Below, piece by piece: positions 31,907-61,475 of a DNA stretch of 64,000 nucleotides; within the stretch, counting starts at the first letter, position 1, and the number at the start of each line of letters is the position of its first letter. The stretch spans positions 1,974-65,973 of the forward strand of contig CAKZPT010000091.1 in assembly GCA_937139365.1 (NCBI GenBank), read 5' to 3'. The position numbers were made by a program, and so were the translations under genes. The notes beneath the pieces are model-generated. The model made no database searches and was not told where the DNA came from. It saw only the letters and a list, made by a program, of their open reading frames with translations. The stretch is from an uncultured bacterium (lineage in GTDB: Bacteria > Verrucomicrobiota > Kiritimatiellia > PWTM01).

Positions 31907-33007
31907 GCGGGAGGCGGGAGCCGCCGAGGCCGGCCAACGTGGGCTGAAGATTGGTCATCGCCGTCATTTCGCCGCAGACGCAGCCGGCAGGAATGCGGCC
32001 GGGCCACCGAGGCAGCGTCGGCAACCGCACGCCGCCGTCCCGCGTGCATCCCTTCGCGCCGCGTAGCGGCCTGTTGGCCGCCCCCACGTTGATCGCGCCG
32101 CCGTTGTCGCTGGTGAGAATCACGAGGGTGCGATCCGCCAGGCCGGCGGCGACCAGTGCTTCCAACACGCGGCCGACGGCCGCATCCATCGCCGCGATCG
32201 TCGCGGAGTACATCGCGTGGTCGTGGGTCAGGCGCACGTCGCGTTCGCCGTCGCGTCCCCACCGAGAGATCAGCTCCAGCCGTGACGCTTTCTGCTCGAA
32301 ATGCCGGCGCCGGTCAGCCCGCGCCTAAAGGGGGCGTGGAAACGGAGTTGTAGGGCAGCTACGCCAAAAACGGTCGATTGCGGTACGCGCAAAATGAACC
32401 GCGCCGTCTCCTCCGCGAGCCGTGCCGTGAGATACTTGGCCGGTGGGCCGTCGGGGAGCCGGGGGATGTCGTAGGGCGAGAAGTACTTTCCGCCGCTGTA
32501 AGGGCCGCCCTGTTTCGTGCGGCCGAGGTTGCGATTCGAAGCCCTGGGTCCTCTAGCTATCATCCCTCGGGGCCCAGGTGCCATCTGCCCCCAAAGGCGT
32601 ATCCCCTCTGCTTCGACAGTTCGGTCCCCATCACCTCCTCGCGCGCGGGCCGCTCGGCATAAGGGGAAAACAGCCCGCGTGTTCCGGGCCCATGCGCCGA
32701 GTTGCGGAGCGCCGGGCTGATCGGAAATCCCCGTACGTTGCGGCCAGCAACCCGGCATCAGGTTGGCGCGGGCCGTCGAGCAGATGGGGCAAGTGGCATC
32801 GGCGACCGTGAACGGGATGCCCACCGCCGCCAGGCGCTCGGTGTTGGGGATCTCGTAGAAGTGGTCACCGAGGCAGACGGCATCCGTCGCCCCCAATCTT
32901 TCACGAGGCAGCCCCGAAAATTTGGTGGCGAGGGGGCGGAGACTGGCGGCAACGCCAGCGTGCCACAGCAACGGCGGCAAGCGCAGTGTGAAGACCTGCG
33001 ACGGCAC
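31907..33007 (-). pseudogene. Sulfatase remnant: N-terminal and middle regions in two reading frames; the C-terminus is missing (cut off by the end of the GT4 gene)
   Basis: Frame 32270-33007 carries the sulfatase N-terminal signature region with a degenerate active-site motif (ADATCPICSTARANLMPGCWPQRTG: C-S-T-A-R where C-S-P-S-R is expected). Frame 31907-32237 carries the middle region (HAMYSATIAAMDAAVGRVLEALVAAGLADRTLVILTSDNGG). No room is left for the C-terminal domain. Confidence 0.5.
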
Positions 33008-33061
33008 AGAGATCGTCGGGCGCGCAGCGGGTCGGCGCTTCGTTCGCGTGGCGGCGAAACC

Positions 33062-34363
33062 CTACCGCCGCCGCGGCCGGTTTGCACGGGCGGCCTTCCG
33101 TCGGCGAGGCACGCGTTCCGAAGCCCCGCTGCGCGGATTGAGCTGATCGAGAATGGCCTGCAGTCGGTGCCGGGCCTCGGCGGCCTCCGCGCCGCCCTCA
33201 CCGGGCGCCACCGCCTTTTGCGAAAACGGGGCGTCGCTCATGTCGAACAGCTCGCCGCTTTCCGTCAGTTTCCAGCGAGCGCTCCGCACGTACCAGCGGT
33301 CGCCGAGCTGCACGAAGACCCATTCCCTAGGCTGGCCCCGCTCGCCCTTGATTTGAGGGGCAAAGCTGCCGCCGTCGAGGACGGTGTTCACCGGGATCTT
33401 CGCCCCCGCGAGTTCGGCGAAGGTGGGGAAGAAATCCGTCAGGTCCACGAGGTCGTCGCAGGTGCGTCCGGCGGGCGCGACCCCCTTCCAGTTGACGATC
33501 AGCGGAACTCGAGCGCTTCCCTCGAGCATCGACCCCTTCTGCCCGTCGATCCTTCGGCCGTTCAGAAGGGAGTGGCCGGCGCCGAACCTCGCCGTGCCGT
33601 TGTCGGCGGTGAAGAGGATCAGGGTGTTTTCGCGCAGGCCGAGCCGGTCCAGCTCCTCCAGGAGGCGGCCGACCTTCTTGTCAAGGTAGATCATCATGTC
33701 CTCGTAGAAGTCCTTCGTCTCCGGGCGGCTGTCGGGCGTGCGGACGATGGGGCCGTGGATCAGGTGGGTCGAGTAGTAAAACAGGAACGGCCGGTCGCGA
33801 TGCCGGCGCAAGAAGTCGAGCGTGAACTCGAGGCAGGCGTCGGGGCCGTAGATCTCGTGATCGAAGGTGCGCGTTTCGCCGTTCACGGTGTAGCTCTTCA
33901 CCCAGAACCAACCGCCGGCGACGGGGTCGGTCAACCATTCGTCGAAGCCCCAGTCGCCCGGCGTCTCGCCCATCTGCCGCCATTTGCCGGCCATGCCGGT
34001 GACGTAGCCGGCGGCGCGTAGCGTCTTAGCAAACGAGGGCTCGTCGGCCGACTTCGGGTTGACGGCCGAGGGATTCGTATGGCCGCCGGTCCGAAAACCG
34101 TAGCGACCGGTGATCAGCGCGCACCGCGACGGCCCGCAAAGCGGCATCGCGAAACAATGGGTGAACTTCATGCCGGTCTCGGCCAGCCGGTCCAGGCTCG
34201 GTGTCTTGCCCCGGAACCGGTCGCTGCCGAAACATCCAACGCCGTCCAGCCCGAGGTCGTCGGCGAAGATCAGCAGAATATTGGGGCGGACGGGCACGTC
34301 CGCGGCGCATGCCGCCGCGACCAGCCCCGCCGCCGCCACGAGGCAACAACAAGCGCGGTTCAT
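33062..34363 (-). CDS. Sulfatase (arylsulfatase family)
   Basis: Signal peptide MNRACCCLVAAAGLVAAACAA. Metal-binding IFADDLG. Active-site signature CGPSRCALITGRYGFRTG (CxPxR for formylglycine). TADNG motif. Start at ATG 34361-34363. Stop codon TAG. Confidence 0.8.
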   Translation of the reverse strand: MNRACCCLVAAAGLVAAACAADVPVRPNILLIFADDLGLDGVGCFGSDRFRGKTPSLDRLAETGMKFTHCFAMPLCGPSRCALITGRYGFRTGGHTNPSAVNPKSADEPSFAKTLRAAGYVTGMAGKWRQMGETPGDWGFDEWLTDPVAGGWFWVKSYTVNGETRTFDHEIYGPDACLEFTLDFLRRHRDRPFLFYYSTHLIHGPIVRTPDSRPETKDFYEDMMIYLDKKVGRLLEELDRLGLRENTLILFTADNGTARFGAGHSLLNGRRIDGQKGSMLEGSARVPLIVNWKGVAPAGRTCDDLVDLTDFFPTFAELAGAKIPVNTVLDGGSFAPQIKGERGQPREWVFVQLGDRWYVRSARWKLTESGELFDMSDAPFSQKAVAPGEGGAEAAEARHRLQAILDQLNPRSGASERVPRRRKAARANRPRRR

Positions 34364-34616
34364 GGCATTTTCTCCGATCCGCACGACCCAACAACGGCCG
34401 GGCCGGATGGATATTTTGCCGGCCGGGGGGCGCGAGAAGGCACCCGAGGTGGCTCGGCGGTTTCGGACGGCAGGCGCCACGGCCCGCGGCGATGCGCGGT
34501 GCGCGTTCGATCCGTTCATTCCCCTCGCATCGCCTTGCCAGATGCCGGCCACCGCGACGCGGCCCGGCCGCCGTAGGCGACCCCGGACGGGGCCGCTTCC
34601 GGAGAATCGACGCGCG

Positions 34617-36973
34617 TCAGTTGGCCGCCGCGGCGCAGGGAAACTCGATGATCGTGGCCGACAGGGCGGCGAGGCGGAGTTCGCCGAGCTCGACGGCGCC
34701 GACTTCCGCCACCGAGACCACGGGATCCTGGTCGGGATCGTTGAAGGACGTGGGGGCCGGGCCACTCAGCCGCCAGGCGCGGCCCGGGCCTTTGATGCGT
34801 GCGCCGGCCACGCGCAGCGGAACGCGCAGTTCCTCCCGCCACGGGTTGACGACAGACACCACCAGCCGGCGGCCATCGGACGACCGCAGGGCCTGCGCCT
34901 CCAGCAGGTGGCCGGTCTCGGTACGCAATGGTGAGCCGAGGAAACGGTTGCGGTACAGTTCGAGGGCCAGCCCCGTGGTCTCCATGGCCGCCCGGGTGCG
35001 GCTGGTCTTGATCGCGCCGATGACATTGACCGTCTGCGCGTAGAACGCCGAGACGATGACGTCCGACTGCCGGGCATACTCGTGGAACCCGGCGGCGATG
35101 CCCAGCGCGTCGCGCAGGAAATATCGGGTCCCGAGCTCGCCGAAGACGTGAGGGCCGTACCAGTAGTTCCACTCGGTCATGGCCACCGGGATGGGACGGT
35201 CGCGGAGGCCGGGAATGGAGGCGCGGTAGGCGCGATGGGCTTCCGCCTTCTGCCGGATCCTTTCGGGGATCTGGCGCACGTGGCTCATGTCGCCCGGCAG
35301 GTCGCCGCAATAGAAATGTTCCGCGATCCAGTCCATGTGGGCGGCGCAGGCCTTGAGCATGCCCTCGCTCCACGGCCCGGCGTTGCCGGAGGCGATCGCG
35401 ATAAAGGAAGGGTGCGTTTGTCGCATGGTCCCCACCACCCAGTTGTGTTTGAGGAAATAGTGCTCGGGTTTCATGTAGCCGAGCTGCCAGGTTCCCCACA
35501 TCTCGTTGCCGATGCACCAGTAGCGGATGTTGAACGGCTCGCGCGCGCCGTTGTCCGCGCGTTTCCGACCCCACCAGGTCGTTCGGGCATCGCCGTTGCT
35601 GTACTCGAGCTCGGCGGCGGCCGAGTGTGCGTCGCCGAACCCGGTGTCGACCGTCACCATCGGCTCCGTCCCGACGAGCCGGCAGAAATGGACGAACTCG
35701 TGCAGGCCGGAGTCGTTCGGTTCGATGCCCGTCCATGCCGGGTTCGCGCAAGTGGGCCGGCGGTCGCGCTCGCCGATGCCGTCGCGCCAGTCGTAACCCG
35801 AGACAAAGTTGCCACCCGGCCACCGGTAGATGGGGGCGCGCAGCCGGCGCAGCAACTCGACCGTGTCCCGGCGCATGCCCTCGACGCGATCCGCCGGCAT
35901 GAGTGAAACGGCGCCTACCCGGACCGGCGCCCCGTCGGCACGCAGCGCCAACGCCGCGGAGGCGACGGTGCCTGTGGCGGTGAACTCGAACGGGATCCGC
36001 CGGGGCTCATCCCCCGCGACGGCCGCGCCGGTCAGGCCGCCGACGGCCCCCTCCAATGATACGGTCAGCCGCGCACCCCGCACGGCCGAGGACGCGACAA
36101 CGTACCCCGTATACCGCCGCCCCGCCTCTACCGCCAAATGCCGCTGCCGGATGGCCGCCCCCGGCGCAAGCTCCACCGCGTGACGCCCCGACACCACGCC
36201 ATGGGTGGTCATCGCCACGGCGTTCGGCCCGCCCGAGATGATCTCCCATGGCGAGGTGCGGAGAATCGGGTACGGGTTTGCCGGCGTGGGCTCCACACCC
36301 GGACCATAGGGCGCGTAGTCCGGCCGGACGGGGAAAAAGAACTTCCGGTCCTCCAGCATCTCGGCCCATATGCCACCATAGATACACCGGCCCAGGTGTT
36401 CGATGAACTGGCTGTACACCCGTTCGTCCAGCGGAGGACCGGACACGGAGGCGTCCACCGAAATGCCGCCCACCGACATTGGGTCGGTGGCCAGGATTTC
36501 AAGACGGACGTCGCGAAACGACGCCCGCCCCCGGCACTGACCGGGGCCGCCCAAGGCAGCCCGAATCTCGACCATGTCGTTCGTCGTCGAGTCGAACTCG
36601 ATGAACAGACGTGTCCAGTCCGAGGTGCCCGTCAGCCGTGCTGATGCAGTGGCGAGGCCGGGGATGGAAAGGTACGCGCCGTCAGCCCCTCCACGCCCTC
36701 GGCGCGAGCCCATGCGGTGAGCCGATGGCGGGAGAAGGGCCGTAGCCCGACGCGGTGGAGCCATCCTGCGTGAGCAGGCCGCACGGCCTCCACGACGGCA
36801 ACCGGGCGCCCTTCGAAACGCTGGACCGCAAAGAAGGCCTCACCGTTCCAGGTTCGGGTCCGCCAGCCGCGCGCGGCGTCGTCGGAGCGCTCGGGAAACT
36901 CCAGCGGCTCGGTTGCGGCAGCCGCGGCGATGGCGAGGGAGAGATGAATCTTCGATGCGACGTGGACACCCAT
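34617..36973 (-). pseudogene. GH51 alpha-L-arabinofuranosidase. The signal-peptide exon is in a different frame from the catalytic body (one frameshift near 36650-36760).
   Basis: Catalytic body in frame 34617-36764 (LRAPIYRWPGGNFVSGYDWRDGIG ... YWCIGNEMWGTWQLG ... TEWNYW). An upstream ORF 36632-36973 starts with a strong SD (AAGGAG, 8 nt before ATG 36971-36973) and a signal peptide MGVHVASKIHLSLAIAAAAA, but it is in another frame. Confidence 0.6.
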
Positions 36974-37128
36974 AGGTTTTCTCCTTATTTGGGAATACTA
37001 AGTATATGTGGTGACGAGGTCAAGCCCGCCGTCGGCCAGGGCGCCGGCGGGGCTGTTGGGGCGGGGCGGGTGGCTTGCGGTGCGCGGTGGGCCGACCGAT
37101 GATGCGCGGCGCAGAAAGGTGGACTCAT

Positions 37129-37941
37129 ATGACGAAAGTGGTGATCGTGGGTGCAGCCGGCCGGATGGGCCGCACCCTGGTCCGGTGCATCCGGGAGGGG
37201 GCCGTACCGGACGTTGTGCTGGTCGGAGCGGTGGACCTGTGGGACTGCCCGGATCTGGGCCGGGACGCCGGGCGCGTGGCGGGGGTGGACGAGGTCGGCG
37301 TGCCGATCGGCTGCGACCTGGCAGCCGTGGCGCCGCAGGCGGATGTGGTGGTGGATTTCAGTTCCCATCACGGGTCGACCGGCAACTCCTCGCGCTGCGC
37401 CGAATGGGGGCGACCGATGGTGATCGGCACGACAGGTTTGAGCGCGGACGAGCAGGCCGAGGTGGGGGCTGCGGCGCGGCGGATTCCGATCGTGATGTCG
37501 GCCAACATGAGCCTCGGCGTGAACCTGCTGCTATCCCTGCTCGAACGGGCGGCCGTGGCGTTGAGGGACCGGGGGTACGACGTGGAGATCGTCGAGCGCC
37601 ATCATCGTCAGAAACGCGATGCGCCCAGCGGCACGGCGCTGATGCTCGGCGCCGCAGTGGCTGCGGGATTCGGCCGGCGGTTGGAGGAGGTCGCGGTTTA
37701 CGGCCGTCGTGGGATGAGTGACGGCTCGCGGCCGGGGGGCGAGATCGGCTTTCACGCGATGCGCGGCGGGGACATCGTGGGTGACCACACCGTGCTGTTT
37801 GCGGGGATGGGCGAGCTGCTGGAGTTCACGCACCGTGCAACCGGCCGTGAAACCTTCGCGATCGGCGCGCTGCGTGCCGCCGCGTGGGCGAAGGATCGGG
37901 CGCCGGGCCTGTATTCGATGCGGGACGTGCTGGGGGTGTGA
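37129..37941 (+). CDS. dapB: 4-hydroxy-tetrahydrodipicolinate reductase
   Basis: N-terminal Rossmann VVIVGAAGRMGRTLV. DapB core (MVIGTTGL ... IVMSANMSLGVNLL ... EIVERHHRQKRDAPSGTAL). The SD AAAGGTGG precedes ATG 37129. Confidence 0.8.
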   Translation: MTKVVIVGAAGRMGRTLVRCIREGAVPDVVLVGAVDLWDCPDLGRDAGRVAGVDEVGVPIGCDLAAVAPQADVVVDFSSHHGSTGNSSRCAEWGRPMVIGTTGLSADEQAEVGAAARRIPIVMSANMSLGVNLLLSLLERAAVALRDRGYDVEIVERHHRQKRDAPSGTALMLGAAVAAGFGRRLEEVAVYGRRGMSDGSRPGGEIGFHAMRGGDIVGDHTVLFAGMGELLEFTHRATGRETFAIGALRAAAWAKDRAPGLYSMRDVLGV

Positions 37942-37975
37942 CGAGGCGCCGCCGGGGGCGGCCGGAGGAACGGAA

Positions 37976-38273
37976 CATGGTGGTGACGCTGGTGCACGTG
38001 ACGGTGCGGCCCGACCGCGTGGCGGACTTCATCGAAGCGACCCGCCGCAACCACGAGGCCTCCGTGCGCGAGCCGGGCAACCTGCGCTTTGACGTGTTGC
38101 AATCGGCCGACGACCCCGCACGGTTCATCCTCTACGAAGCCTATGTGGACGAGGCTGCGGCGGCGGCGCACAAGTCCACGGCGCACTATGCCGAATGGCG
38201 GGACGCCGTGGCCGGGTGGATGGCCGGGCCGCGTCGGGGCGAACGCTACGCAGGTTTGTTTCCCTCCTCCTGA
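37976..38273 (+). CDS. Antibiotic-biosynthesis-monooxygenase (ABM) domain protein
   Basis: About 100-aa ferredoxin-like ABM pattern (MVVTLVHVTVRPDRVADFIEATRRNHEASVREPGNLRFDVLQ...). Confidence 0.55.
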
Positions 38274-42314: not shown

Positions 42315-43499
42315 CTATTCGACGGACGAGAGGCGCCGCCGGAACGAGTCGGCCATGCCGCTGAGGAGGCTGTACATGGCCGGCACCAGTCCCAGCGTCA
42401 GCAGCGTGGCCGAGGTCAGACCGAACATGACGGCGACCGCCATCGGGGCCCACCAGGCGCTGGATTCGGACCCGGTGACCAGCCGCCACGGCCACGTGTG
42501 GATGTCCAGACTCCACCCGACCGCCATCGGAAACAGCCCGAGCACCGTGGTCGCCGCGGTGAGCAGGACGGGGCGCAGCCTACGGACACCGGCGACGACG
42601 ATCGCCTGGTGGCGGTCCATGCCCTGTGCCCGGAGCTGTCGGATGCAGTCGATCAGCACGATCGCGTTGTTGACGACGAAGCCGGCCAGCGTGATGACGC
42701 CCAGACCCGTCATGATGATGCCGAACTTCATCCGGCGGAGGATCAGGCGCCACATCACGCCGACCAGCGACAGCAGGACCGAGGAGAAGACAATGCCCGG
42801 GATTAAAACGGAGTTGAACTGGAGGACCAGGATCACGAGGATCGCCGCGCTGGCGACCATGAACGCGTGGAGCAGAAACCGGGCCGACTGCTGCATCTGG
42901 CGGTTCTCGCCGGTGAAGGCGACCGCGCACCCCGGCGGCACCGGCACGGCGGCCACCCGCGCCTTGACGTCGCGCAGGATCCGGTCCACGCCCCGGCCGG
43001 CGTCGTTGCCGCTGATCTTGATGACGCGCTTCTGGTCCTTGCGCTGGATGGCGACGCGGCCGGCCGCGTAGCGGAACGTCCCCAGCGACGTGATCGGGAC
43101 GGCGGCGCCAGACGGCGTCGGGATGCGCAACCGTTCCGTCCAGTCGAGCGTGGCGCGCTGGTCCGCGGGCAGGCGGACGGTAATGTCGTACTCCTCGGTC
43201 TCGCCCCGGAAGCGCCCCGCCTCGACGCCGTAGAGCGCCATGCGCAGGAACGTCCCGATCGACCGCGTGTCGCCGCCCAGCATCGCGGCCCGCTCGCGGT
43301 CGACGTGGAACTGGAGTTCGGGCAGCGCGTCCTCGAAGTCGTCGCGGAGGTCCACCAGCCCGGGGACGTCGGCGACGGCGCGGGCGATCTCGACGCCACG
43401 TTCGGCCTGTTCCACCGTGCGAGACGACGCCGCGACGGCCGCCGCCTCCCGCAGCCGAAGAATTGCCTCCTCCACCTCGAGCTGGATCGTCCGCTCCAT
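42315..43499 (-). pseudogene. C-terminal half (about 390 aa) of an RND (AcrB/HAE1-type) efflux transporter. The N-terminal roughly 650 aa are absent.
   Basis: Covers the second periplasmic loop plus TM8-12 (..RFLLHAFMVASAAILVILVLQFNSVLIPGIVFSSVLLSLVGV...). The ORF begins inside the periplasmic loop, with no TM7. The upstream space is occupied by the ABC exporter gene on the other strand. Confidence 0.6.
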
Positions 43500-43547
43500 C
43501 TCGTCGAGGTCCGCCCGAGCCGATTCGAGGATAAAGCCGAAACAATG

Positions 43548-43591
43548 TCAACCGGCCGGGGGCGCGCCGGGCGGCGCGCGCGGCCGGTTGA
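43548..43591. repeat. GC-rich palindromic hairpin (11-bp perfect inverted repeat TCAACCGGCCG/CGGCCGGTTGA around a 22-nt loop containing GGCGCGCC)
   Basis: Read directly from the sequence. It lies between the truncated RND start (43499) and the ABC exporter start (43638). Confidence 0.7.
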
Positions 43592-47239: not shown

Positions 47240-48367
47240 CTACGGATCCCGGACCGTCCAGTGCCGGCCGTCGGGACCGCGAATCACCGCGCCATCTCGC
47301 GTCCAGCGGACCACCGCGCCCGGCGCCAACGGCACCTTGCTCTCGCCGCCCGGCACGTCGATGACGAACTGGGGGATCGCCAGGCCGGTCAGCCGCCGCC
47401 GCATCATCGCCACGAGTCGGAGGGCGCGCCGGAGGGGGACGCGAAAATGCCCCGCCCCACGCACCGGATCGCAGTGCAGCAGGTAGTACGGGCGTACCCG
47501 GATCTCGACCAGGCCGCGGAAGAGATCCTCCAGCGTCCGGGCATCGTCGTTCACGCCGCGGAGCAGAACCGTTTGGTTGCCGACCGGCACGCCGGCGTCG
47601 ACGAGCCGGCGGCAGGCCTCCGCGGAGGCCGGCGTGATCTCGGCCGGGTGGTTAAAATGCGTGTTGAGCCAGACCGGATGGTGCCGCCGAAGCACCCGGC
47701 ACACCGACCGCGTGATCCGCGCCGGCAGCAAAACGGGCATCCGAGTGCCAATCCGTATCACGCGGACGGTCGGGACGGCGCGCAGCGCGCCGAGCAACTC
47801 ATCCAGCCGTCGGTCGGAGAGGCACAGCGGATCGCCGCCAGTGACGAGCGCCTCCCGGACCTCCGGGTGACGCCGCAGCCATTCGGCCGCCCGGGCCGCA
47901 TCCGCCGCCGCCAGCGTCGCGCCGTTCGCGTTCGTGACCAGTTCGTTGCGACGCGTGCAGTGCCGGCAGCGAACCGCGCACTCGCGCGTGGCGCACAGCG
48001 CCACGCGATCCGCATAGCGCCGGATCACTCCGGGCACGACCGTGTGGCCCTCCTCGTCGAACGGATCCGGCGGCAGGCCGCGGTGGCGAAGCTCCTCGCG
48101 CAGGGGGACGCACATGCGCACGATCGGGTCGCGCGGCGACCATTCGCGGATGAGCGACGCGTAATACGGCGTGACCGCCATCGGCCATCCCGAGGACTCC
48201 GGGTCCGCCGCCCAGGGGACCGGGCCGGCCTTTCCCAGCCATCGGGCCAATTCCTCAGGGGTGCGAAGCCGCGCCCTCATCTGGACCGGCCACGGCGCCC
48301 CCGGGCTGACCCGGCGGGGCGTCCGCGACATTGACCGGATACGGCCGGCGGCGGTCCGTCTGGTCAT
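47240..48367 (-). CDS. KamA-family radical-SAM aminomutase (lysine 2,3-aminomutase / EpmB-like)
   Basis: Radical-SAM cluster CAVRCRHCTRR (Cx3Cx2C). KamA-type core (VTGGDPL ... RIGTRMPVLLPARIT). Stop codon TAG. The exact start is uncertain. Confidence 0.7.
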   Translation of the reverse strand: MTRRTAAGRIRSMSRTPRRVSPGAPWPVQMRARLRTPEELARWLGKAGPVPWAADPESSGWPMAVTPYYASLIREWSPRDPIVRMCVPLREELRHRGLPPDPFDEEGHTVVPGVIRRYADRVALCATRECAVRCRHCTRRNELVTNANGATLAAADAARAAEWLRRHPEVREALVTGGDPLCLSDRRLDELLGALRAVPTVRVIRIGTRMPVLLPARITRSVCRVLRRHHPVWLNTHFNHPAEITPASAEACRRLVDAGVPVGNQTVLLRGVNDDARTLEDLFRGLVEIRVRPYYLLHCDPVRGAGHFRVPLRRALRLVAMMRRRLTGLAIPQFVIDVPGGESKVPLAPGAVVRWTRDGAVIRGPDGRHWTVRDP

Positions 48368-50011
48368 GGCGCAGCGGTGCTCCGGGGAACGTCGGGCGCC
48401 GCCGCGGAGGCCGCGTCGTCCGCCTCCTCCTGTTCCACTTGGAGCCAGGCGGCGGCGGAGCGGTTCGACGCCAGCTCGCGGGCGCGGATTTCCCAGAACC
48501 CACTCTCGTCGTTGGGGGCGATCTCGATCATCAGGTTCAGCTCACCGTCCCGCGTGGCGTGCCATCCAGTCCATTCGGCCTCGCGTCCGGCGGAGTCGCG
48601 GACCTCCACCCGGAGCGGCACGACGGCCGGAACGGGGGTGCCGACGTCGTCCTCGACGCGGATCGTCAGGGGGGCGGTGCCGCCGCGCCGCGCGACGGCC
48701 GGCGCGACGATCCGTACGCACGCGATCGGCCGGTCGACCACCATCCAGATCCGTCCCTTCGCACGGACCGAACTCGTGGCGAAAGACGAGGTCGCCGCCG
48801 CGTTCCTCGGCGGCCACGGGCAGATGCGCGACGAGATCGTAGACGTGGCCGCCCGTCCGGCGAAGACGCACCTCCGCGGATTGGGGCACACCGTCCTCCA
48901 TCACCAGGCCGTGCCGGCCGACGTAGGTTCCGTATTGCCGGAGGTCGTTCACCGCGAACACGTAGTCCGTGGCTCCGTATTGCCGCAGGCGGGGCACGAC
49001 GGTCGGCGACGAGGTGCGCAGCCGCGCCGGGTGTCGGCTGCCGAGGGCCTCGGCAAGGCGGCGGCCCTTTTCCACCATGGCGGCGTGTTCCTCGCTGGCA
49101 CGCCCCGTCCGGGGAACGATGGGGATGCGCAGGTCGGCCTCGACGGCCGGTGACAGTCGCTCGTCGCCGATGACCAGCCCGCCGCGCCGGCGGAAGTCGG
49201 CGATGCGGTCGACGATCGTGCGGGGTAGCACGTCGCAGTCGGGAAGCGCGAGCACCGAAATGCCGTCGAGGCCGTCGCGCGCGATCGTCTCCTCGTACAG
49301 GATGCGGGGCGACAGTTGCGCGTAGGTCAGGATGTGCCATGCGGTGCCGGCCCAGCCCTGCCCCCAGCCGTAGGTGCCACGGCCGGCGAACATCTGCGAG
49401 GTGAAGCTCTCTAGCATCCCCGAGGGCGCCGGGGCGTCGGGGATCTGCAGCAGCGCCGGCCCGAGCGGCTCGAGCACCTCGCGCAGCAGGCGGCGCAGTT
49501 CGTGCTGGGTCTCCGGATGCGTCAGCCGATAAGGCCCGCGGACACCGGGGCAGGGGACCAGCGACTGCCAGCCGTGGTACATGATGCCGGCGACCGGCCG
49601 CGCGATCTTCACCCAGAAACACTCGCGCAGGTGCATCGGCGCGATCGTCAGGAAGGCGGCGTCGGGTTCGATGTCCTCCCACGGCGAGAGCGCCGCCGCC
49701 CGCGCGGCCGAATCCGCATTGGCCGGCGCGAGCGCGGCGCGCCGGACGGCGCGGTCCGGCGCCGCGTCGGTGGACAGCAGGCAGGGACCGAATCGTCCGT
49801 TCGATACGATCGAGGCGCCCGCCAATTGCAGGTGCAGGCCGTTCGGACCGGCGTCGCGCAACGGGTCGTCGGGGAGAACCAACCAGCAGGCGATCACCCT
49901 GGGCCCCGAGGCCTGCGCACCCTGGTAACGCGCGGTCCACGGTTCGCAGGCCGCCCACGACAGCGCAGCCAGCAGCGGGAGGATGAGGCCGGCAAGGGAT
50001 TCAGCCTTCAT
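48364..50011 (-). pseudogene. Secreted hypothetical protein (possibly glycoside-hydrolase-like), interrupted by one frameshift near 48740-48770
   Basis: Signal peptide MKAESLAGLILPLLAALSWAA. Protein-like sequence runs to about 48770 and then turns Arg-rich. A protein-like C-terminal region continues in frame 48364-48891 (..LTIRVEDDVGTPVPAVVPLRVEVRDSAGREAEWTGWHATRDGELNLMIEIAP..). Confidence 0.4.
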
Positions 50012-50148: not shown

Positions 50149-50224
<76 letters not shown>

Positions 50225-50268: not shown

Positions 50269-51073
50269 GTGCGCGTTCCCGCGCGGTTCGTTGCGGGGTG
50301 GATGGCGGCCATGACGGCGGCAGGATCGGCGGCCGAATCCGCCGGACAAGGGCGACGGCGTCCGGCGGATCACGAACGTCCGGCCGCGCCTGGAGGTGTA
50401 CTCTCCGGCCGACCCGTGCGGTACGGCGGTGCTGGTCTGTCCCGGCGGGGGCTACAATATTCTCGCCATTTCGCACGAGGGCACGGACGTTTGCCGCTGG
50501 CTCAACGGCCTGGGGGTGACGGCCGCGTTGCTGCACTACCGCGTGCCGAATCTGCGCGACGCCGCGTTCACGGACGCGCAGCGAGCAATGGGCCTGCTGC
50601 GGCGGCGGTCGGCGGAGTTCGGAATCCGCCCCGACCGGATCGGCCTCCTCGGCTTCTCCGCCGGCGGCCACCTCGCCGCTCGGGTGTGCGCTCACGATGG
50701 GCCGAGAATGTACGCGCCCGTCGACGACGCCGACGAGGCGCCCGCCCGGCCCGATTTCGCGGTGCTGATCTACCCCGCTTACCTGGCCGACACCAACTCG
50801 CCCGGCGGCGTTAGCGCGACCCTGCCGGCCGGAGCGCACTGTCCGCCCACCTTCCTCGTCCACGCGGCCGACGACCGTAGTTCGCCCGCCAACAGCATCT
50901 CCTGGTTCCTGGCGTTGCGCGGGGCCGGAGTGCCGGCCGAGATGTACGTGTACGAGTCCGGTGGCCATGGGTTCGGCATGAAAACGTCGGTGCCGCCGAC
51001 GCTGCGCGAGTGGCCCGAGCGGTGCGCGGAATGGATGCGCGACCGCGGTCTGGTGCCCGCCCTGCCGCCATGA
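50269..51073 (+). pseudogene. Alpha/beta-hydrolase carbohydrate esterase (BD-FAE / acetyl-xylan-esterase-like). The signal-peptide region is in a different frame from the catalytic domain.
   Basis: GTG 50269 with the SD GGAGGTGA starts a signal peptide MRVPARFVAGWMAAMTAAGSAAESA in frame 1. The esterase domain (RPRLEVYSPADP..VLVCPGGGY ... LGFSAGGHLAA ... VHAADD ... GGHGF) is in frame 2, which is open from 50315. The shift lies at about 50320-50345. Confidence 0.55.
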
Positions 51074-51227: not shown

Positions 51228-52459
51228 ATGAGCCCTGCCGCCTCCATGTCTCCGCGGGAACGGTTGCGCGTCACGCTGGCGGGGGGGATGCCCGACCGCG
51301 TCCCCGTCTCGCCGTTCGTCCAAGAGGAATACCTGGCGTTCTGTTATCCGGACCGCCCCACGGCGGACCGGGTGGTGGATGCGACCCGGCTGGCGGAGGC
51401 GCTGGATTTCGACCTGATGGCGCATCCGCGCACCCTCGAGCCTCCGCATTTTTCCGCCGGAGCCGGCCGGGGTGGGAGGTGCGTCCGGAGCGGGCCGAGG
51501 AGGACGGCATGCAGGTGCAACGGCTCCGGATCCGCACGCCGTCGCATGAGCTGGTGCGTAAGGACCGCCGTCCCCTGGCCGGCGCGGCGACGGCGGGGGT
51601 GAGCTGGACGCCGGTGCGGCCGCTGCTGGCCGACGCGAACGACCTCGCCGTCTTACTGGAACGGATGCCGCCGCCGGACGACGCGGGTCGCCGCGAGATG
51701 AAGGAGACGATCGCCGGCTGGCGCGCCGTTCTCGGCGAACGCGGCATCGTGGCGCCATGGGGATTCGCCGGCGTGTTCAACGCGGCGGCGGAACCGGTCG
51801 GCATGGACCGGCTCTACGCGATGCCCTTCGAGGAACCGGACGAGTATGCGGCGCTGATGGAGGGGCTCGCCGCGGCCGAGGCCGACTACAACGCCGTGCT
51901 GGCCGCCGCCGGCGCCGCCGCCGTCGGCATCCAGGGCCACATCGCCGGCGGCCAGTCGGTCGGCCCCGATTTCTTCCGGGAACGTGTCCTGCCATGGGAA
52001 CGCCGCGTGGTCGGGGCCATTCACGCGGCCGGGGCCTTCACCGTGTACCACAACTGCGGCCACGCGCGTTCCCTGTACGAGGTCTATCGCCAGCTGGGGA
52101 TGACCGCGTAGGAGACGGTCGCCGAGCCGCCGCGGGGCGACAACACCCTCGAGGAGGCGAAAGCCATGCTTGGCGACCGGATCGTGCTGATCGGCAACCT
52201 CGAGCAGGTCGGGTTTCTGAAGCGAGCCACCCCCCGCGAGGTCGCCGAGCGGACGCGACGGATGGTTCGAGTAGGCAAACCCGGCGGCCGCTACATCGCC
52301 GCCGCCGCAGACTTCATCGAGCGCGGAACCCCGCTGGGCAACCTGCGCGCGATGATCGAGGCGGCGAAGGACGAGGGAGACCACGGATCACGATGGTGCG
52401 CCTGCCGCGAATCGAACGCGGAACCTTCAGCTCCGGAGGCTGACGCTCTGTCCAATTGA
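51228..52459 (+). pseudogene. Uroporphyrinogen-decarboxylase (URO-D) family protein (MtaA/CmuA-like). It carries one frameshift and one in-frame TAG, and its 3' end runs over tRNA-Arg on the opposite strand.
   Basis: The N-terminal part is in the frame of 51111-51602 (RERLRVTLAGGMPDRVPVSPFVQEEYLAFCYP). It shifts to frame +2 at the T5 run near 51455-51470. That frame continues (..VYHNCGHARSLYEVYRQLGMTA) to a TAG at 52109-52111. It then resumes in-frame (ETVAEPP...LGDRIVLIGNLEQ ... GRYIAAAADFIERGTPLGNLRAMIEAAKDEG). Confidence 0.55.
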
Positions 52460-52470
52460 GCTACAGGCGC
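52394..52470 (-). tRNA. tRNA-Arg (CCG)
   Basis: The reverse complement is GCGCCTGTAGCTCAATTGGACAGAGCGTCAGCCTCCGGAGCTGAAGGTTCCGCGTTCGATTCGCGGCAGGCGCACCA. Anticodon loop CUCCGGA. The full cloverleaf forms. CCA is encoded. Confidence 0.8.
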
Positions 52471-55333: not shown

Positions 55334-56597
55334 ATGACGAACAAACGGATCGAGGCGGCGTATCGATTAGCGAGGGAACGGTACGGGGACATCGGGGTGG
55401 ACACCGAGGCGACCCTTGGCCGGCTGGCGAGGATTCCGATCTCGATGCACTGCTGGCGGGGCGACGACGTCGGCGGCTTCGAGAACTTCGACGGCGGCCT
55501 CGGCGGCGGGCTGGCCGCGACCGGCAATTATCCGGGCAAGGCGCGGACGCCGGACGAGTTGCGGGCCGACGCAGAGAAGGCGTTCTCCCTGATCCCCGGC
55601 CGGCACCGGTTCAACCTGCATGCCTTCTATGCCGAGTTCCGCGGCCGCAAGGCGGACCGCGACGCGATCGAGTTCCGCCACTTTCGCGGATGGTGGACTG
55701 GGCGAAGTCGCTTGGGATCGGGCTCGACTTCAATCTGACGTGCTTCTCCCATCCAAAGGCCGCCAGTGGGTTCACGTTGTCGCACCCCGACCGGGATATC
55801 CGCCGATTCTGGATCGGCCACTGCGTGGCCTGCCGGCGGGTCGGTGCGGCGATGGGTCGGGCGCTGAACAACCCGATGGTCACCAATATCTGGATCCCCG
55901 ACGGGATGAAGGACACGCCGGCGGACCGCTCCGGCTTTCGCGACCGGCTGCAGGAGTCTCACGACGAGATCCTGGACGCGAAGGTGGACACTCGTCACAA
56001 CCTCGACGCCGTCGAGGGCAAGCTGTTCGGGCTCGGCTGCGAGAGCATGACGGTCGGCTCGCACGAGTTTTACCTCGGCTACGCCGTGCGGCGGCAGATC
56101 CTCTACACGCTGGATTCTGGCCACTGTCATCCGACCGAACAGGCGCGGACAAGATCTCGTCGGTGTTGCGGTACATGCCCGGCCTGCTGCTGCACGTCAG
56201 CCGCGGCGTGAGGTGGGACAGCGACCACGTCGTGGCGCTCAACGACGAGCTGCGGTCGATCGCGGAGGAGCAGGTGCGCGGCGACGCGCTGGATCGCACG
56301 CACATCGGCCTGGACTACTTCGACGCCAGCATCAATCGGATCGCCGCGTGGGTGATCGGCACGCGCAACGTGATCAAGGCGCTCCTGCTGGCGCTGTTGG
56401 AGCCCCGCGCGACGCTGCGGCGGATGGAGCTGGCCGGCGACTACACCGGGCGCCTGGCGCTGCTGGAGGAACTCAAGACGCTGCCGACCGGCGCGGTCCG
56501 GGACGAGTACTGCCGGCGCCAGGGGGTGCCGGTGGGCGCGGCGTGGTTGGACGAGGTGCGGGCCTATGAAAAGGCCGTGCTCGCGCGCCGGGCTTGA
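55334..56597 (+). pseudogene. rhaA: L-rhamnose isomerase, split over three reading frames by two single-base deletions
   Basis: The three segments are collinear with E. coli RhaA. Segment 1: MTNKRIEAAYRLARERYG..PISMHCWRGDDVGGFEN..GNYPGKAR. Segment 2: [21 protein letters not shown]...IWIPDGMKD...DSGHCHPTE. Segment 3: [29 protein letters not shown]...[16 protein letters not shown]. Restoring one G in each of two GG runs (near 55690 tggtgg to tgggtgg; near 56147 gcgcgga to gcgcggga) gives a single ORF. Confidence 0.7.
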
Positions 56598-56627
56598 GGC
56601 GCGGCGGCCGGCCGGGAGGACGCGGAG

Positions 56628-57719
56628 ATGGAATCGGCGACGAATCCGGCACTAAGCGTGGCGATCTTCACCCTCGGCGGGCTGGCAGGCGCGGTCTTTT
56701 ACTTGCCGTTCAAGAGGGCCCGCCAGTGGGCGTGAGAGAGCTACTGGCTGGTCTACGCGATCGCGGGGCTGGTGGTCGTGCCGTGGATCCTCCCGATGAC
56801 GACCTCGCCGAACACGCTCTCGGTGCTGCGGCAGGGACCGGCGGGGGTGATCAGGCGGTGTTTCATGTACGGCGCGATGTGGGGCGTCGGCGGTTTGACG
56901 TGGGGTCTGATGATCCGCTATCTCGGCATCGGCCCGGCGATCGGCTGCGGGCTGTGCTCCGCCGCCGGCACGCTTGTGCCTCCGATCCTGGAGGGCAACC
57001 TCGGCAGGCTCTACGGCACGCCGGCGGCCAACGCGTCGCTGCTGGGGGTGGCCGTCTCGCTGGCCGGCATCGTGCTGGTGGGCACGGCGGGCATGTCGAA
57101 GGAGGCCGAGCTGCCGGAGGAGCAGAAGAAAAAAGCGGTGGCCGAGTACAACTTCCGCAAGGGAATCCTCGTGGCGATCTTCTCCGGCCTGATGAGTTCC
57201 GAGATGAGCGTCGGCCTGCAGGGCGGCAAGGCGATCGAGGAGTTGACCCGCACCGTCGAGCCGGCCACCCCATTGACCTGGAGCGGCATGCCCGTGCTGG
57301 TGGTGGTGCTCCTCGGCGGCTTTGTCGTGAACGCCCTCTGGTGCCTCCATTTGGACGTGAACAACAGGACGCTGGGCGACTACGCGAAGCCCGGCGCCCC
57401 GATCGCCGCCAACCTATTCCGGGCGGCGTTGGCCGGCGCGATCTGGTGCGCGCAATTCATCTGCTTTAAAACGGGCGAGTCGGCGATGGGCTCCATGGCC
57501 TGCATCGGCTGGGCGGTGCTGATGGCCAGCGCGATCGGCTTCAGCACCCTGCTGGGCATCGTACTGGGCGAATGGAAGGGCACCGGCCAGCGGACCCGGT
57601 CCCGCCTCGCGGTGGGGTTGATCCTGCTGCTGGGCTCGACCATCCTGGCCGGCTACAGCGGGCGCCTCGTGCAACGGAGCGCGCCGCCGGCTACCGAAAC
57701 GCCCGCCGTGGAGCCCTGA
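56628..57719 (+). pseudogene. rhaT: L-rhamnose-proton symporter, with an in-frame TGA at 56733-56735 replacing a conserved Trp codon. Alternatively an N-terminally truncated CDS starting at GTG 56772.
   Basis: ATG 56628 ... FYLPFKRARQWA*ESYWLVYAIAGLVVVPW, compared with E. coli RhaT [30 protein letters not shown]: the stop aligns to W. Downstream, MYGAMWGVGGLTWGLMIRYLG matches the RhaT signature [21 protein letters not shown]. Confidence 0.6.
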
Positions 57720-57817
57720 CCGGCTTCGGGCCTGTCCAAACCTTGGAAGCTTTGGCCGGCCTTGGGTCCAAACCTTGGATGGCCGGCGCGGACAGAACGA
57801 CGAAAGGAGAGCGGACC

Positions 57818-59314
57818 ATGGCGGATCGAGTGTACCTGGGCGTCGACCTCGGGGCCGAAAGTGGGCGGGTCATTGCGGGCGTTTGGAACGGCCGGAAACT
57901 CCGTCTGGAGGAGGTCCACCGGTTTCCGAACGGGCCGGTCCACCTGGCCGACTCCATACGATGGGACGTCCTGCGCCTGTGGGCGGAGGTCCAGAACGGG
58001 CTGTCCGCCGCCGCCCGGCGGTATGGCCGCCAGATCGTCTCCGTCGGCGCCGACACCTGGGGGGTGGACTACGTTCTGCTCACCCGCCGCGGGGAGATGC
58101 TCGGCCTGCCCTACCACTATCGGGACTCGCGTACGGACGGCGTCATGGCCTCGGCCTTCCGCAAAGTGCCCCGCGCGGAGATCTTCCGGCAGACGGGCCT
58201 CCAGTTCATGCAGCTCAACACGCTGTTCCAGCTCATCGCGCACCGCCGGGAGCACCCGGACATGCTCGACCATGCCGACCGCCTGCTGATGATGCCGGAC
58301 TTCTTCCATTGGGCGATGTGCGGATCGAAGGTCGTCGAGTTCACCGACGGCTCCACGACCCAGTGCATGAGCGCCGGCCGGCGGACGTGGGCGACCGGCC
58401 TGCTGCGCGCCTTAGACATCCCCACGCGCATTTTCCCGAAGGTGGTCCAGCCCGGCACCGACCTCGGCGAGCTGCGCCGTTCGGTCGCCGAGCGCACCGG
58501 CTTAGATGGCGTCCGCGTCGTCGCGCCGCCCACCCATGACACCGCCTCCGCCGTCGCGGCCGTCCCGACCGACCGCACCGGCTCGGCCGAGTGGGCGTAC
58601 CTCAGCTCCGGTACCTGGTCCCTGATGGGCGTCGAGGTGCGGCGCCCCGTGATCACCGCCCGGGCCCTCGAGCTGAACGTCACCAACGAGGGCGGCGTCG
58701 ATGGCACCTACCGGCTGCTGAAGAACATCATGGGCTTGTGGCTCGTGCAGCAGTGCAAACGGGCCTTCGAGGCCGCCGGCCGGACCTACACCTACGCCGA
58801 TCTCGTCCACGAAGCCGCTGCGGCGCCGGCCCTCCGATCGTTGGTGGACCCCGACGATACCCGTTTCCTCAACCCGCCCGACATGCCCCGCGCCATCCAA
58901 TCCTACTGCCGCGAAACGGGACAGCCCATCCCCTCGACCGACGGGGCACTGGTCCGCTGCGCGTACGACAGCCTTGCGCTCAAGTACCGGCAGGTGGTCG
59001 GGTCGCTGGAGGAACTGACCGGCGGGCGCATCGAGGTGATCCACATCGTCGGCGGCGGCTCGCAGAACGACCTGCTGAACCAGTTCACCGCCGACGCCTG
59101 TCAGCGGCCTGTGCTGGCCGGTCCCGTCGAGGCTACGGCGATGGGCAACGTCCTCGTCCAGGCGCGCGCCAGCGGCGAGGTCGGGTCGCTGGCGGAGATC
59201 CGCGAGGTCGTCCGCCGGTCGTCGGCGCTTCGATCGTTCGAGCCCGGCGACCCCGGCCCGTGGGACGAGGCCGCCAACCGCATGGAGCGCCTGCGTCGCC
59301 GCAAGGAGTCCTGA
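57818..59314 (+). CDS. rhaB: Rhamnulokinase (FGGY carbohydrate-kinase family)
   Basis: FGGY N-terminal motif [13 protein letters not shown]. RhaB-like core (HYRDSRTDG ... MPDFFHW ... [16 protein letters not shown]). The SD AGGAGA precedes ATG 57818. The ORF is intact. Confidence 0.8.
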
Positions 59315-59488
59315 AGCCCGGGCGAACTTCAAGGATCCCTGGCAGTTCCCCGGCGAGGCGCCCTGATTATTCGCCCTGTCGCAAGGTGGGGCGCTGCGCC
59401 GCGACGGCTACACCGTGCCCTCGGGACTCGACCTTGCACGAGCCGCGCGATCGCGATCGGCCCCGGCAAGCCAGGGGCCTGTGGCCGG

Positions 59489-59514
59489 GGACACAGTTAA
59501 TAAAGTCCGGCCCC
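59489..59514. repeat. 26-nt AT-rich intergenic element GGACACAGTTAATAAAGTCCGGCCCC, copy 2 of 2
   Basis: Identical to 7467-7492. It lies between rhaB and the DUF5060/GH-like gene. Confidence 0.6.
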
Positions 59515-59698
59515 GGGCTCGCTGAGGCTCTGCCATTCGCCCTCGCACAGTTGGTGGCCGCGGCGCCGGGGTTGCGCCGCAGTCCACCGCGAGAGGCCTC
59601 GCGCCGCGGCCTCGCTAGCCCACATCCATTCATCCCGTGCCGCTTGATTGCGCCTCCGCTTCGTTCGTAGGATTTCGCGCGCCGAGGATAACCAGGAG

Positions 59699-61475
59699 GT
59701 GCAAACGCAACCGTACGGCATCACGGCGGGCATGGTGTGGGCCGCTCTTGCATTCAGCGGGACGGTGTGGGCGGCGGACGGCGTCGAGGCGGGGCTTGTC
59801 CATGTCCGCGGGGAGTGCCGCCAATAGCATCCGTCGACCCTCGACGTGCAAGGGCCGGAGGCCGACGAGACGGGCACATCGCCCAATCCGTTTCTCGATT
59901 ATCGATTGACGTGGCGGCTGACCGCGCCCAGCGGAGGCCGCGAGGTCGCCGTGCCGGGATATTTTGCGGCGGACGGCCGCGCGGCGGAAAGCGGTGCGAC
60001 CCGCGGGAACCGGTGGCGCGCGCATTTTGTCCCCGACCAGTCGGGGCGGTGGACGTGGCGGCTGGAGTTCGTCCAGGGGCCGGGCATCGCCGTCTCCGAT
60101 GACCCCGGGGAGCCTGTGGCGGGGCCGCATGGGGCGGGCGGCGCGTTTAAGGTGGCGCCGGCGGCCCTTTCCGACGATCCTATCCGCCGCCGCGGCCGCC
60201 TGACGCCGGCTGGCGGCCGGTACCGGCGTTTCCTCGGCGACGGCTCGTGGTTCTTGAAAGCGGGCGCCGCCTCCCCCGAGACCCTACTGGCGTACCGCGA
60301 CTTCGACGGCACCGAGGCGCGCAAATCCTCGGCCGCTCCGCTGAAAACATAGGCGCCGCACCCTGGCGACTGGCAGCCCGGCGATCCCGTCTGGCGCGGC
60401 GAGCGCGGCCGTGGCCTGATCGGGGCCTTCAACTACCTGGCCGCCGTTGGCGTCAACGGCGTCTCCTTCCTCACCAACAATGCGGGCGGCGACGGCGACA
60501 ACGTCTGGCCGTTCGCCGCCCGCGACGACAAGCTGCACTACGACTGCGGACGGCGGCCGCCTGGGCGTGGAGCGGAAGCTCTACCTCCGCGAGATCGTCG
60601 CCCGCTTCGAGCATTTCCTGGCCGTCACGTGGAACCTTGGAGAGGAGTGCTCGTTGAGCACCGACGAGATCGCCGCGATGGCCCGCCACCTCCGGCAGCT
60701 CGATCCCTACGGCCACCTCGTTGTCGGCCACACCTTCCCCGACCAGCAGGACGCTGTCTACCGCCCCCTGCTCGGCCGCGCGGACGTCGTTACGGGGGTC
60801 TCGCTCCAGAACGGCTGGTCCGCCGCCCACCGCCAGACCTGGACTTGGATCGTCGAGTCCGAGCGCAGCGGCCATCTGTGGGTGGTGGCCAACGACGAGC
60901 AGAACCCCGCCGATCTGGGCGTGCCCCCCGACGAGGGCTGGAAGGGGTTCGACGGGCTTGCCCGCGGCGAACGCGGCCGACCCTACACCCGCCACGACAT
61001 CCGCAAGCGCTGCCTCTGGGGCACCCTCATGGCTGGTGGGGAGGGCGTCGAGTACTTCTTCGGGTACCGCCTGCCGGAAAACGACCTGAATTGCGAGGAT
61101 TTCCGCAGCCGCGAAGGCGCCTGGCGCGACGCCGCCTTGGCGCGCGCCTTCTTCCGCGACCACAAGGTGCCGTTCTGGGAGATGCGGAACGCGGACGAAC
61201 GGGTCGGCAACCATCGCCGCGGCGACGGCGCCTATTGCCTTTCGAAGCCCGGCCTCGCCCACGTGGTCTACCTGCCAACGGGGGGTACGGTGCGCCTCGA
61301 CCTGTCGGACGACCCGACGGAGTACGACGCCGGATGGTACGACCCCCGCGCCGGCGGCCCGCTCCGGCCCGTCGCGCCGGCGCGAGTGCGCGGGGGAGGG
61401 GTTGTTGAGATTGGGCCTCCGCCGGCCGATCCACCGGAGGACTGGGCGTTTCTATTGCGCAGGACCGGAGGGTGA
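59699..61475 (+). pseudogene. Secreted glycoside-hydrolase-like protein (DUF5060 N-terminal domain plus a DUF4038/GH-like catalytic domain), interrupted by two in-frame TAG codons and one frameshift
   Basis: Signal peptide (M)QTQPYGITAGMVWAALAFSG. TAG at 59825-59827 sits in ..VRGECRQ*HPSTLDVQGPEADETGTSPNPFLDYRL; the stop aligns to the conserved W of DUF5060 homologues (..KQWHxVTLTFxGP..NPFxDYRL). A second TAG is at 60350-60352 (..APLKT*APHPGDWQPGDPVW..). A frameshift near 60545 leads into frame 60447-61475 (..YLREIVARFEHFLAVTWNLGEE ... HLWVVANDEQN ...). Confidence 0.55.

Follow-up and report, generated by a model that had tools for sequence, protein, structure and literature searches.

A 64-kb stretch of DNA from one uncultured GC-rich (~70% GC) bacterium (contig CAKZPT010000091.1; the whole stretch is called the window below) contains ten interrupted genes, most of them related to glycans or sulfatases, among intact housekeeping and signalling genes. 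Judging from the sequence comparisons described here, the interruptions are very probably true, fixed pseudogenes, left by dispensable, mostly glycan- and sulfatase-related genes that decay under relaxed selection. This reading is carried by the recurrence of every lesion in other assemblies, by the ratio of non-synonymous to synonymous polymorphism (pN/pS) in the broken genes, and by the clustering of the lesions in few genes. An earlier note, made from the letters of the window alone, had proposed an eroding polysaccharide-utilisation island and had kept sequencing error open as the cause.

Gene content and lesions of the window

The GC content per 2 kb is 63-73%, uniform along the window and with no step at the pseudogene borders. 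Coding pieces were delimited by codon-position GC, raw lists of open reading frames (ORFs) being uninformative at ~70% GC, and were named by means of Pfam and of the gene calls on near-identical public contigs. The resulting table holds 43 genes and three tRNAs. Thirty-three of the genes (~41 kb) each consist of one full-length ORF whose Pfam match is likewise complete, in agreement with the earlier description of the long core and regulatory genes as intact. They include sensor kinases of 1281, 840 and 636 aa, a 1184 aa Ser/Thr kinase (STK-LRR), an 808 aa GT4 protein, two ABC exporters, dnaG, thrBC, prmA, dapB, epmA, efp, rhaB and one sulfatase.

The remaining genes carry ~22 disabling lesions (13-14 frameshifts, 6 in-frame stops and 2-3 deletions or truncations), a recount that replaces the previous figure of about 16 in 64 kb. 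In the genes for a formylglycine-generating enzyme (FGE), a GH51 glycosidase and an MG2-domain protein, lesions were judged against homologues by tblastn and frameshift-aware protein-to-DNA alignment, and in rhaA, rhaT, the URO-D-family gene, the DUF5060 glycoside hydrolase gene (DUF5060-GH), the RND remnant and the second sulfatase (sulfatase-2) by the way in which frames or stops divide the Pfam match along its profile. Full-length homologues of the FGE, GH51 and MG2-like genes are single ORFs, and the window can be aligned with them over the whole length only when frameshifts and stops are permitted. By homologue alignments and Pfam coordinates, nine of the ten genes that the earlier note had listed as broken are clearly broken and the tenth, an esterase gene, is probably broken. 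The first 15 kb of the window contains no broken gene, and in the ~9 kb of exopolysaccharide-synthesis genes past its right end (contig L169) each gene is called in one piece, without split calls next to one another.

The best identity of DnaG is 43-47% in genomes and 52% in metagenomes (contig L082), with top matches in metagenome-assembled genomes (MAGs) of Verrucomicrobiota, Kiritimatiellae and Lentisphaerota. As far as protein similarity places it, the organism is a deep-branching member of the Planctomycetota-Verrucomicrobiota-Chlamydiota (PVC) group, the proteins of its closest relatives being ~50-61% identical. No relative close enough for an analysis of synteny or dN/dS was found, the gene order of L082 matching the window at dnaG alone.

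Recurrence of the lesions in other assemblies

Look-ups of exact protein sequences led to twelve contigs, from JGI 3300025104, JGI 3300010288, ENA ERZ27245459 (MEGAHIT, k141) and NCBI GCA_036845605.1, which tile the window from 1 to 64000 at 99.75-99.99% identity. Another contig, of 81.6 kb (NCBI/ENA), has exactly the alleles of the window and probably is its source. Every lesion is reproduced in them, with no indel and no single-nucleotide polymorphism (SNP) at the lesion sites. The indels that do distinguish them from the window (3 nt; 6 nt in the URO-D-family gene; 2 nt and 1 nt, both intergenic; and an intergenic insertion of ~183 nt) restore no frame, and the only one within an intact gene, a 3-nt deletion in the STK-LRR gene of the NCBI contig (39599-39601), is in frame. 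Contigs and window together contain 101 SNP positions with reticulate (mixed) sharing patterns, and since the assemblies have their own SNPs in such patterns they are separate consensus sequences and not copies of one another. Their gene callers split RhaA into three pieces, the URO-D-family protein into two and FGE into two. A search of ~15 billion proteins with FGE, MG2-like and GH51 queries returned no intact allele, the next-best matches after the broken pieces themselves being 58-61% identical.

An origin of the lesions in sequencing or assembly artefacts, such as homopolymer miscounts, unpolished long reads or a chimeric join in the RND gene, is in our judgement extremely improbable. Its support lies in the five of the 11 placeable frameshifts that fall within runs of 3-5 nt (G4 in GH51, G3 in the MG2-like gene, GGG in rhaA, T5 in the URO-D-family gene and C4 in FGE); the other six are in no run, and the lesions also include six nonsense substitutions and two or three deletions. 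All are identical in four other assemblies, MEGAHIT short-read and JGI contigs among them, and the 394 aa ORF of the RND remnant exists as four sequence variants on four different contigs. The chance that random error would spare 41 kb of coding sequence is 5e-13 (a post hoc figure), and errors would not produce a pN/pS of ~1 in precisely the broken genes, or the clustering described below. Systematic sequencing error, kept as an option in the earlier note, is therefore set aside, given the recurrence of the lesions and the nonsense changes and deletions among them.

Polymorphism in broken and intact genes

The 79 coding SNPs were classified in the ancestral reading frames. Intact genes contain 28 synonymous and 24 non-synonymous SNPs (pN/pS 0.31) and broken genes, in a small sample, 6 synonymous and 21 non-synonymous SNPs (pN/pS 1.24; Fisher p=0.0087 vs intact), while pS is 0.0025 in both classes. 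Because pN/pS differs to this extent at equal pS, the broken genes are under relaxed selection and drift neutrally, and their intact neighbours are constrained.

Two changes in the ENA contig L162 are signs of such drift: a SNP at 55736 that abolishes an out-of-frame stop in rhaA, and the absence of 6 nt (51874-79) inside the URO-D pseudogene. A nonsense allele also segregates in an otherwise intact outer-membrane gene of MipA-like type (25087-25764, plus strand): at codon 9 (position 25112) the ENA contigs L166 and L172 have TAG in place of TGG; the ENA gene call starts further downstream and gives 206 aa compared with 225 aa.

Distribution of the lesions and functional bias

If 22 lesions fell uniformly over all coding sequence (57.1 kb), they would hit a mean of 16.3 genes, and the probability that ten or fewer are hit is 2.6e-4, which substantiates the non-random distribution perceived by the earlier note. 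Clustering of this kind fits real pseudogenes, because lesions pile up in a gene after the first hit, which random error does not do. The glycan class was taken to comprise FGE, both sulfatases, GH51, the esterase, rhaA, rhaT, rhaB and DUF5060-GH. Seven of these nine genes are broken, compared with three of the 34 others (Fisher p=1.2e-4; length-weighted permutation p=3.7e-4), where the p-values are indicative only, the functional classes having been assigned after the data were seen, and the bias is measured on ~75 kb and not genome-wide. With the recurrence of the lesions and the contrast in pN/pS, this enrichment supports the earlier proposal of genuine, function-biased decay. The accompanying statement that the lesions are confined to accessory carbohydrate and sulfatase genes describes seven of the ten; the RND, MG2-like and URO-D-family genes are accessory but not demonstrably of either type.

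Besides the limits of these p-values and of the region surveyed, the three pseudogenes that are not clearly glycan genes weigh against our interpretation, and several further points do so too. SNP density differs weakly between the classes (1.7 per kb in broken genes vs 1.3 in intact genes), and the FGE, sulfatase-2, URO-D-family and esterase genes have no SNPs and contribute nothing to pN/pS. The independence of the samples is inferred from accessions and SNP haplotypes, not from reads, and it is conceivable that JGI 3300025104 is a related sample assembled anew. Individual lesions also vary in security: the first two FGE frameshifts, which lie where the sequence is variable, and the frame switch at the T5 run of the URO-D-family gene are less secure, and the esterase gene, which probably has a 5' frameshift to judge from its reading frames, is the weakest of the ten cases.

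The main surviving alternative is that the decay is real yet not function-specific, and follows from weak purifying selection (through small effective population size, a mutator history or early genome reduction). It differs from the explanation preferred here only in emphasis, and we consider it rather unlikely. Glycan genes would then be hit simply because no other dispensable genes are so numerous in PVC genomes, and the RND, MG2-like and URO-D pseudogenes, the nonsense allele segregating in the MipA-like gene of the ENA population (25112), the not especially low pN/pS of the intact genes and the dispersal of the pseudogenes among core genes, away from any single locus, would all find a place. 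It does not sit well with the strong glycan enrichment in the window, with ~41 kb of intact coding sequence that carries no lesion, or with the unbroken calls throughout the exopolysaccharide-synthesis genes on L169; nor were insertion sequences (ISs) or transposases seen in the window, unlike in classic early genome reduction. Relaxed selection that acts mostly on glycan and sulfatase genes is thus the reading that we retain.

The pseudogenes do not constitute a polysaccharide-utilisation island, as the earlier note had supposed, being interleaved with housekeeping genes in DNA of flat composition, in which no island hallmarks were seen. A polysaccharide-utilisation locus (PUL) or genomic island was rejected on the grounds that pseudogenes alternate with thrBC, dapB, the ABC exporters, dnaG, an SRAP gene, epmA/efp and the three tRNAs. 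Among the called genes of the window there is no integrase, transposase, IS element or SusC/SusD-type Pfam match; the tRNAs were not screened for flanking direct repeats. The three tRNAs, tRNA-Met(CAT) (14951-15026, minus strand), tRNA-Ala(GGC) (50149-50224, plus strand) and tRNA-Arg(CCG) (52394-52470, minus strand), lie between pseudogenes and core genes, and the ORF of the URO-D pseudogene shares its final ~60 nt with tRNA-Arg.

The FGE gene and the sulfatases

The highest lesion count is that of the FGE pseudogene (15096..18372, minus strand), which joins an HZS_alpha domain to an FGE-sulfatase domain (SUMF1-type, formylglycine-generating) and descends from an ancestor of ~1110 aa, as determined by Pfam, tblastn and frameshift-aware alignment. 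It has eight lesions in total. Six are frameshifts (~18176-79, ~18097-18139, 17534, 17449, 17180 and ~16404-34), consistent with three homologues of 1110-1121 aa, and two are stops, a TGA at 17141-43 where the homologues have Y or F and a TAG at 15669-71 where they have Q. Low-stringency tblastn is uninformative at the first frameshift pair, the region being variable, and the frameshift-aware alignment with the three homologues supports the pair. In addition, a conserved CxxCH motif is altered to CVGRH. Homologues are abundant (3389 matches below 1e-20), the best being 60% identical over 99% of the query in a Kiritimatiellae MAG. The region is identical to the window in the ENA contig L172 and the JGI contig L168.

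Sulfatase-2 (~31907..33007, minus strand) is a heavily decayed relic, recognized by Pfam and by a PDB alignment to 6ust_A (E=1e-18). One frame encodes its N-terminal half and another its C-terminal half (200-299 of the Sulfatase profile). ER replaces the metal-binding DD, C-S-T-A-R stands in place of the C-x-P-x-R motif, and the N-terminus is gone, including the first beta-strand and the signal peptide. No indels distinguish it from the contigs L165, L166 and L167. The open frame overlaps the 3' end of the GT4 gene, which converges on it (29422-31848), by ~205 nt (31644-31848). The original stop of the relic has probably been lost.

The neighbouring sulfatase-1 (33062..34363, minus strand; 433 aa), which served as a comparator, is an intact Cys-type enzyme that matches the Pfam Sulfatase profile from 1 to 301 of 301. 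An identical protein is present in three other assemblies, with zero SNPs. Since its C-G-P-S-R motif is kept, it would by this motif need a formylglycine-generating enzyme for activity, either an FGE or an anaerobic sulfatase-maturating enzyme (anSME). The sole FGE gene within the window is the dead one with eight lesions.

GH51, DUF5060-GH and the esterase

The GH51 alpha-L-arabinofuranosidase pseudogene (34617..36973, minus strand; identified by Pfam, tblastn and frameshift-aware alignment) encodes a CBM_4_9-like carbohydrate-binding module (CBM) followed by ASD1 and AF_C domains. Exactly one frameshift is present, at ~36684 within a G4 run (GGAGGGGCTGAC), and it disconnects the signal peptide and one half of the CBM from what follows; the rest is collinear with homologues, and the catalytic region downstream of the shift is intact. 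One frameshift is found in each of the alignments to three homologues (786-796 aa, 60-62% identity). Homologues of 786-800 aa cover 93-99%, the best (~60% identity) being from a Kiritimatiellae MAG, and the gene callers of the other assemblies report the gene as pieces of 113 and 652 aa.

The pseudogene of a DUF5060 and apiosidase-like glycoside hydrolase (59732..61475, plus strand), delimited by Pfam and by split calls in L169, has three lesions: a TAG at 59825-27, a second TAG at 60350-52, and an internal deletion near 60540 that shifts the frame. The two stops replace what we take from the family consensus to be W (59825-27) and Y (60350-52).

The carbohydrate-esterase-like alpha/beta hydrolase (50269..51073, plus strand) was recognized by Pfam, PDB alignments and reading of the sequence. 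The conserved N-terminal strand ITNVRPRLEVYSP is located upstream of the first start codon (GTG 50396) and is closed off by a stop at 50312-14, and a candidate N-terminus (GTG 50269 or ATG 50301) is in another frame.

The rhamnose genes

In the rhaA pseudogene (L-rhamnose isomerase; 55334..56597, plus strand) the Pfam profile is covered in three frames, from 3 to 126, from 115 to 267 and from 269 to 417. Two -1 frameshifts account for the changes of frame, one at ~55691-96 (TGGGTGG to TGGTGG) and the other at ~56140-46 (~56143), outside any homopolymer. The gene is present as three ORFs in each of the contigs L162, L163 and L164. The adjoining rhaT pseudogene (rhamnose-proton symporter; 56628..57719, plus strand) is interrupted at codon 36 by a TGA (56733-56735), read as a change from TGG to TGA at a position that is presumably Trp in E. 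coli RhaT. Its Pfam match (35-332 of the profile) begins just after this stop, and the other assemblies call only the 3' ORF of 307 aa.

The FGGY rhamnulokinase gene rhaB (57818..59314, plus strand; named by Pfam) has an intact ORF and served as a comparator. The genes rhaA and rhaT, its partners in the pathway, are both dead. No other intact gene has as high a density of SNPs (11 SNPs in 1.5 kb, 5 of them non-synonymous), and rhaB may be newly dispensable and already drifting, or may be within a recombination tract from the JGI 3300010288 strain.

Pseudogenes not clearly of the glycan type

The RND efflux pump is reduced to a 3' remnant (42315..43547, minus strand) that matches 656-1020 of the 1021 positions of the Pfam ACR_tran profile, with ~2 kb of 5' coding sequence gone. 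A search of the window by means of the pump's internal repeat did not find the N-terminal part anywhere in it. An inverted repeat at 43547-43591, with 12-nt arms (GTCAACCGGCCG and CGGCCGGTTGAC) and a 21-nt spacer, is located exactly at the 5' break and just upstream of the divergent pair of ABC-exporter genes, and may be a terminator or a deletion scar.

The pseudogene of an MG2-domain secreted protein (48364..50011, minus strand; Pfam, tblastn and frameshift-aware alignment) has one frameshift at 48751-48757 (GAAGGGACGG), probably a change from GG to GGG. Six homologues, from a total of 117 homologue matches, align across the site, and the JGI contig L001 aligns to the window without a gap. 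The homologues have 180-520 extra N-terminal residues (some with LamG), for which there is no counterpart upstream of 50011, where tRNA-Ala is located; the gene is thus possibly 5'-truncated as well. One homologue suggests a further frame excursion at 49813-49694, and damage may extend beyond the single confirmed frameshift.

In the URO-D-family pseudogene (51228..52459, plus strand) a TAG at 52109-52111 splits the Pfam profile, with 143-261 on one side and 272-345 on the other. Reading of the sequence places the recognisable N-terminus (MSPRERL...DRVPV) in a different frame, which is followed as far as the T5 run at 51449-51453.

Possible expression of the interrupted genes

The lesion types described above also bear on whether the interrupted genes could still be expressed, by programmed frameshifting, by stop recoding (selenocysteine, Sec; pyrrolysine, Pyl; or suppression), as phase-variable loci or as functional split genes, which we regard as highly unlikely. 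Several of the shifts do lie in short G or T runs, as phase variation or programmed slippage would have it, but these runs are only 3-5 nt long, the longest at a lesion being T5, with zero length variation among the five assemblies; a phase-variable contingency locus was accordingly rejected, there being neither a long tract nor ON/OFF length polymorphism. Four of the six in-frame stops are TAG, including the one in the URO-D-family gene; however, the stops stand at ordinary residues in FGE homologues (Y/F and Q) and at what is taken to be W or Y elsewhere, and TAG ends six and TGA 18 of the 26 intact genes checked. Recoding of TAG was rejected, both codons being ordinary terminators of intact genes. 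Genes for a Pyl or Sec machinery were not seen in the window, although they are possibly elsewhere in the genome, and recoding elements were not explicitly searched for. Also in favour of expression are GH51, with its catalytic region intact after a single shift, and the esterase and rhaT genes, which keep long 3' ORFs. Loads of up to eight lesions in one gene and a pN/pS of ~1.2 across the broken genes do not agree with continued function.

A possible course of decay

In the preferred explanation, selection has relaxed on a dispensable gene set, mostly for the breakdown and uptake of sulfated or plant glycans, most plausibly as a consequence of a changed niche or substrate range, a cause that we infer. 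The RND pump, the MG2-like protein and the URO-D-like enzyme have decayed likewise, and the housekeeping and signalling neighbours are still under purifying selection. The mutations comprise slipped-strand indels at short G, C or T runs, other indels of 1-2 nt, nonsense changes and larger deletions. The predominance of TAG among the nonsense changes is the bias expected from GC-rich codon usage, with which most single-step routes to a stop give TAG. The genes have reached different stages, with one lesion in GH51, rhaT and the MG2-like gene, two in rhaA and the URO-D-family gene, three in DUF5060-GH, eight in FGE, and remnants in the case of sulfatase-2 and RND. Loss of FGE might have made Cys-type sulfatases useless, if the events took place in that order.

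Because the genes are at different stages of decay, a staggered loss is suggested, one that long predates the 0.1-0.25% divergence of the sampled strains. More tentatively, and with considerable doubt, the window may record a lineage-wide, ongoing abandonment of the PVC glycan and sulfatase lifestyle, in which the graded lesion loads preserve the order of loss. That order could run from the sulfatase-2 and RND remnants through FGE (eight lesions), rhaA (two) and GH51 (one) to rhaB and sulfatase-1, which are still open, and the loss of the maturase could have been early. If this were true, and if the local pseudogene density of ~23% held genome-wide, the organism would be a case of early genome reduction in an environmental, free-living bacterium without IS expansion.

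Other features of the window

A cobalamin riboswitch (7807-8012, plus strand; Rfam RF00174, 68 bits) is located directly upstream of a DUF4465 gene (8139-8972), which is overlapped by a gene for a 252 aa hypothetical protein (8959-9717). This arrangement suggests a B12-regulated uptake or binding operon. In the intergenic region between the genes for a GltD-like oxidoreductase and MscS (~5926-5979), the NCBI contig L171 has ~183 additional nt, possibly through a tandem duplication or the presence of a small variable element; the ENA contig L172 has one extra A (6043). The ~183-nt difference is the sole sizeable structural variation among the assemblies. JGI and ENA contigs have a 2-nt deletion (61487-61488) in the intergenic region between DUF5060-GH and epmA.

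Comparison with known systems

The process is a known one, 'use it or lose it' decay, and involves no new mechanism; what is new is the host lineage and the demonstration without reads. Split genes in MAGs are usually dismissed as errors, and here cross-assembly comparison and pN/pS show their biological origin. The recipe is cheap and read-free: a region is tiled with near-identical public contigs, and synonymous and non-synonymous polymorphism is compared between broken and intact genes. Metabolic reconstructions should not credit this organism with rhamnose use, GH51 activity or this FGE. The case also shows which functions are the first to be given up by a PVC-type bacterium, and that genes decay one by one among intact core genes and are not lost as a block.

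Streptococcus thermophilus in milk has roughly 10% pseudogenes, many of them in sugar uptake and catabolism. As in that species, the window displays 'use it or lose it' decay with lesions scattered among intact housekeeping genes and with partial pathways (rhaB intact, rhaA and rhaT dead). It differs in that the bacterium is an uncultured, GC-rich PVC-type organism, the functions concerned are sulfated and plant glycans and rhamnose, and 10 of 43 genes are affected locally.

Mycobacterium leprae, Sodalis glossinidius, Shigella and Salmonella Typhi exemplify reductive evolution after recent host restriction. The window shares with these a high local pseudogene fraction, genes with multiple lesions, neutral-like substitution and lesions fixed across strains. 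Unlike them, it shows no IS expansion, host association or drop in GC content in what was seen of it, and its core and regulatory genes, among them three large sensor kinases and the 1184 aa Ser/Thr kinase, are all intact.

The PVC glycan degraders (Kiritimatiellae, Planctomycetota and Lentisphaerota) are rich in sulfatases and FGEs, including ~1100 aa proteins with HZS_alpha and FGE-sulfatase domains (SUMF1/EgtB/PvdO family). The ancestral gene set of the window, with Cys-type sulfatases, FGE, GH51, DUF5060 glycosidase and rhamnose genes, is typical of their lifestyle, and as in these bacteria the genes of the window are dispersed and not arranged in Bacteroidota-style PULs. Unlike in the PVC degraders, most such genes are dead here, and the FGE homologue, a single intact ORF in thousands of genomes, has eight lesions.

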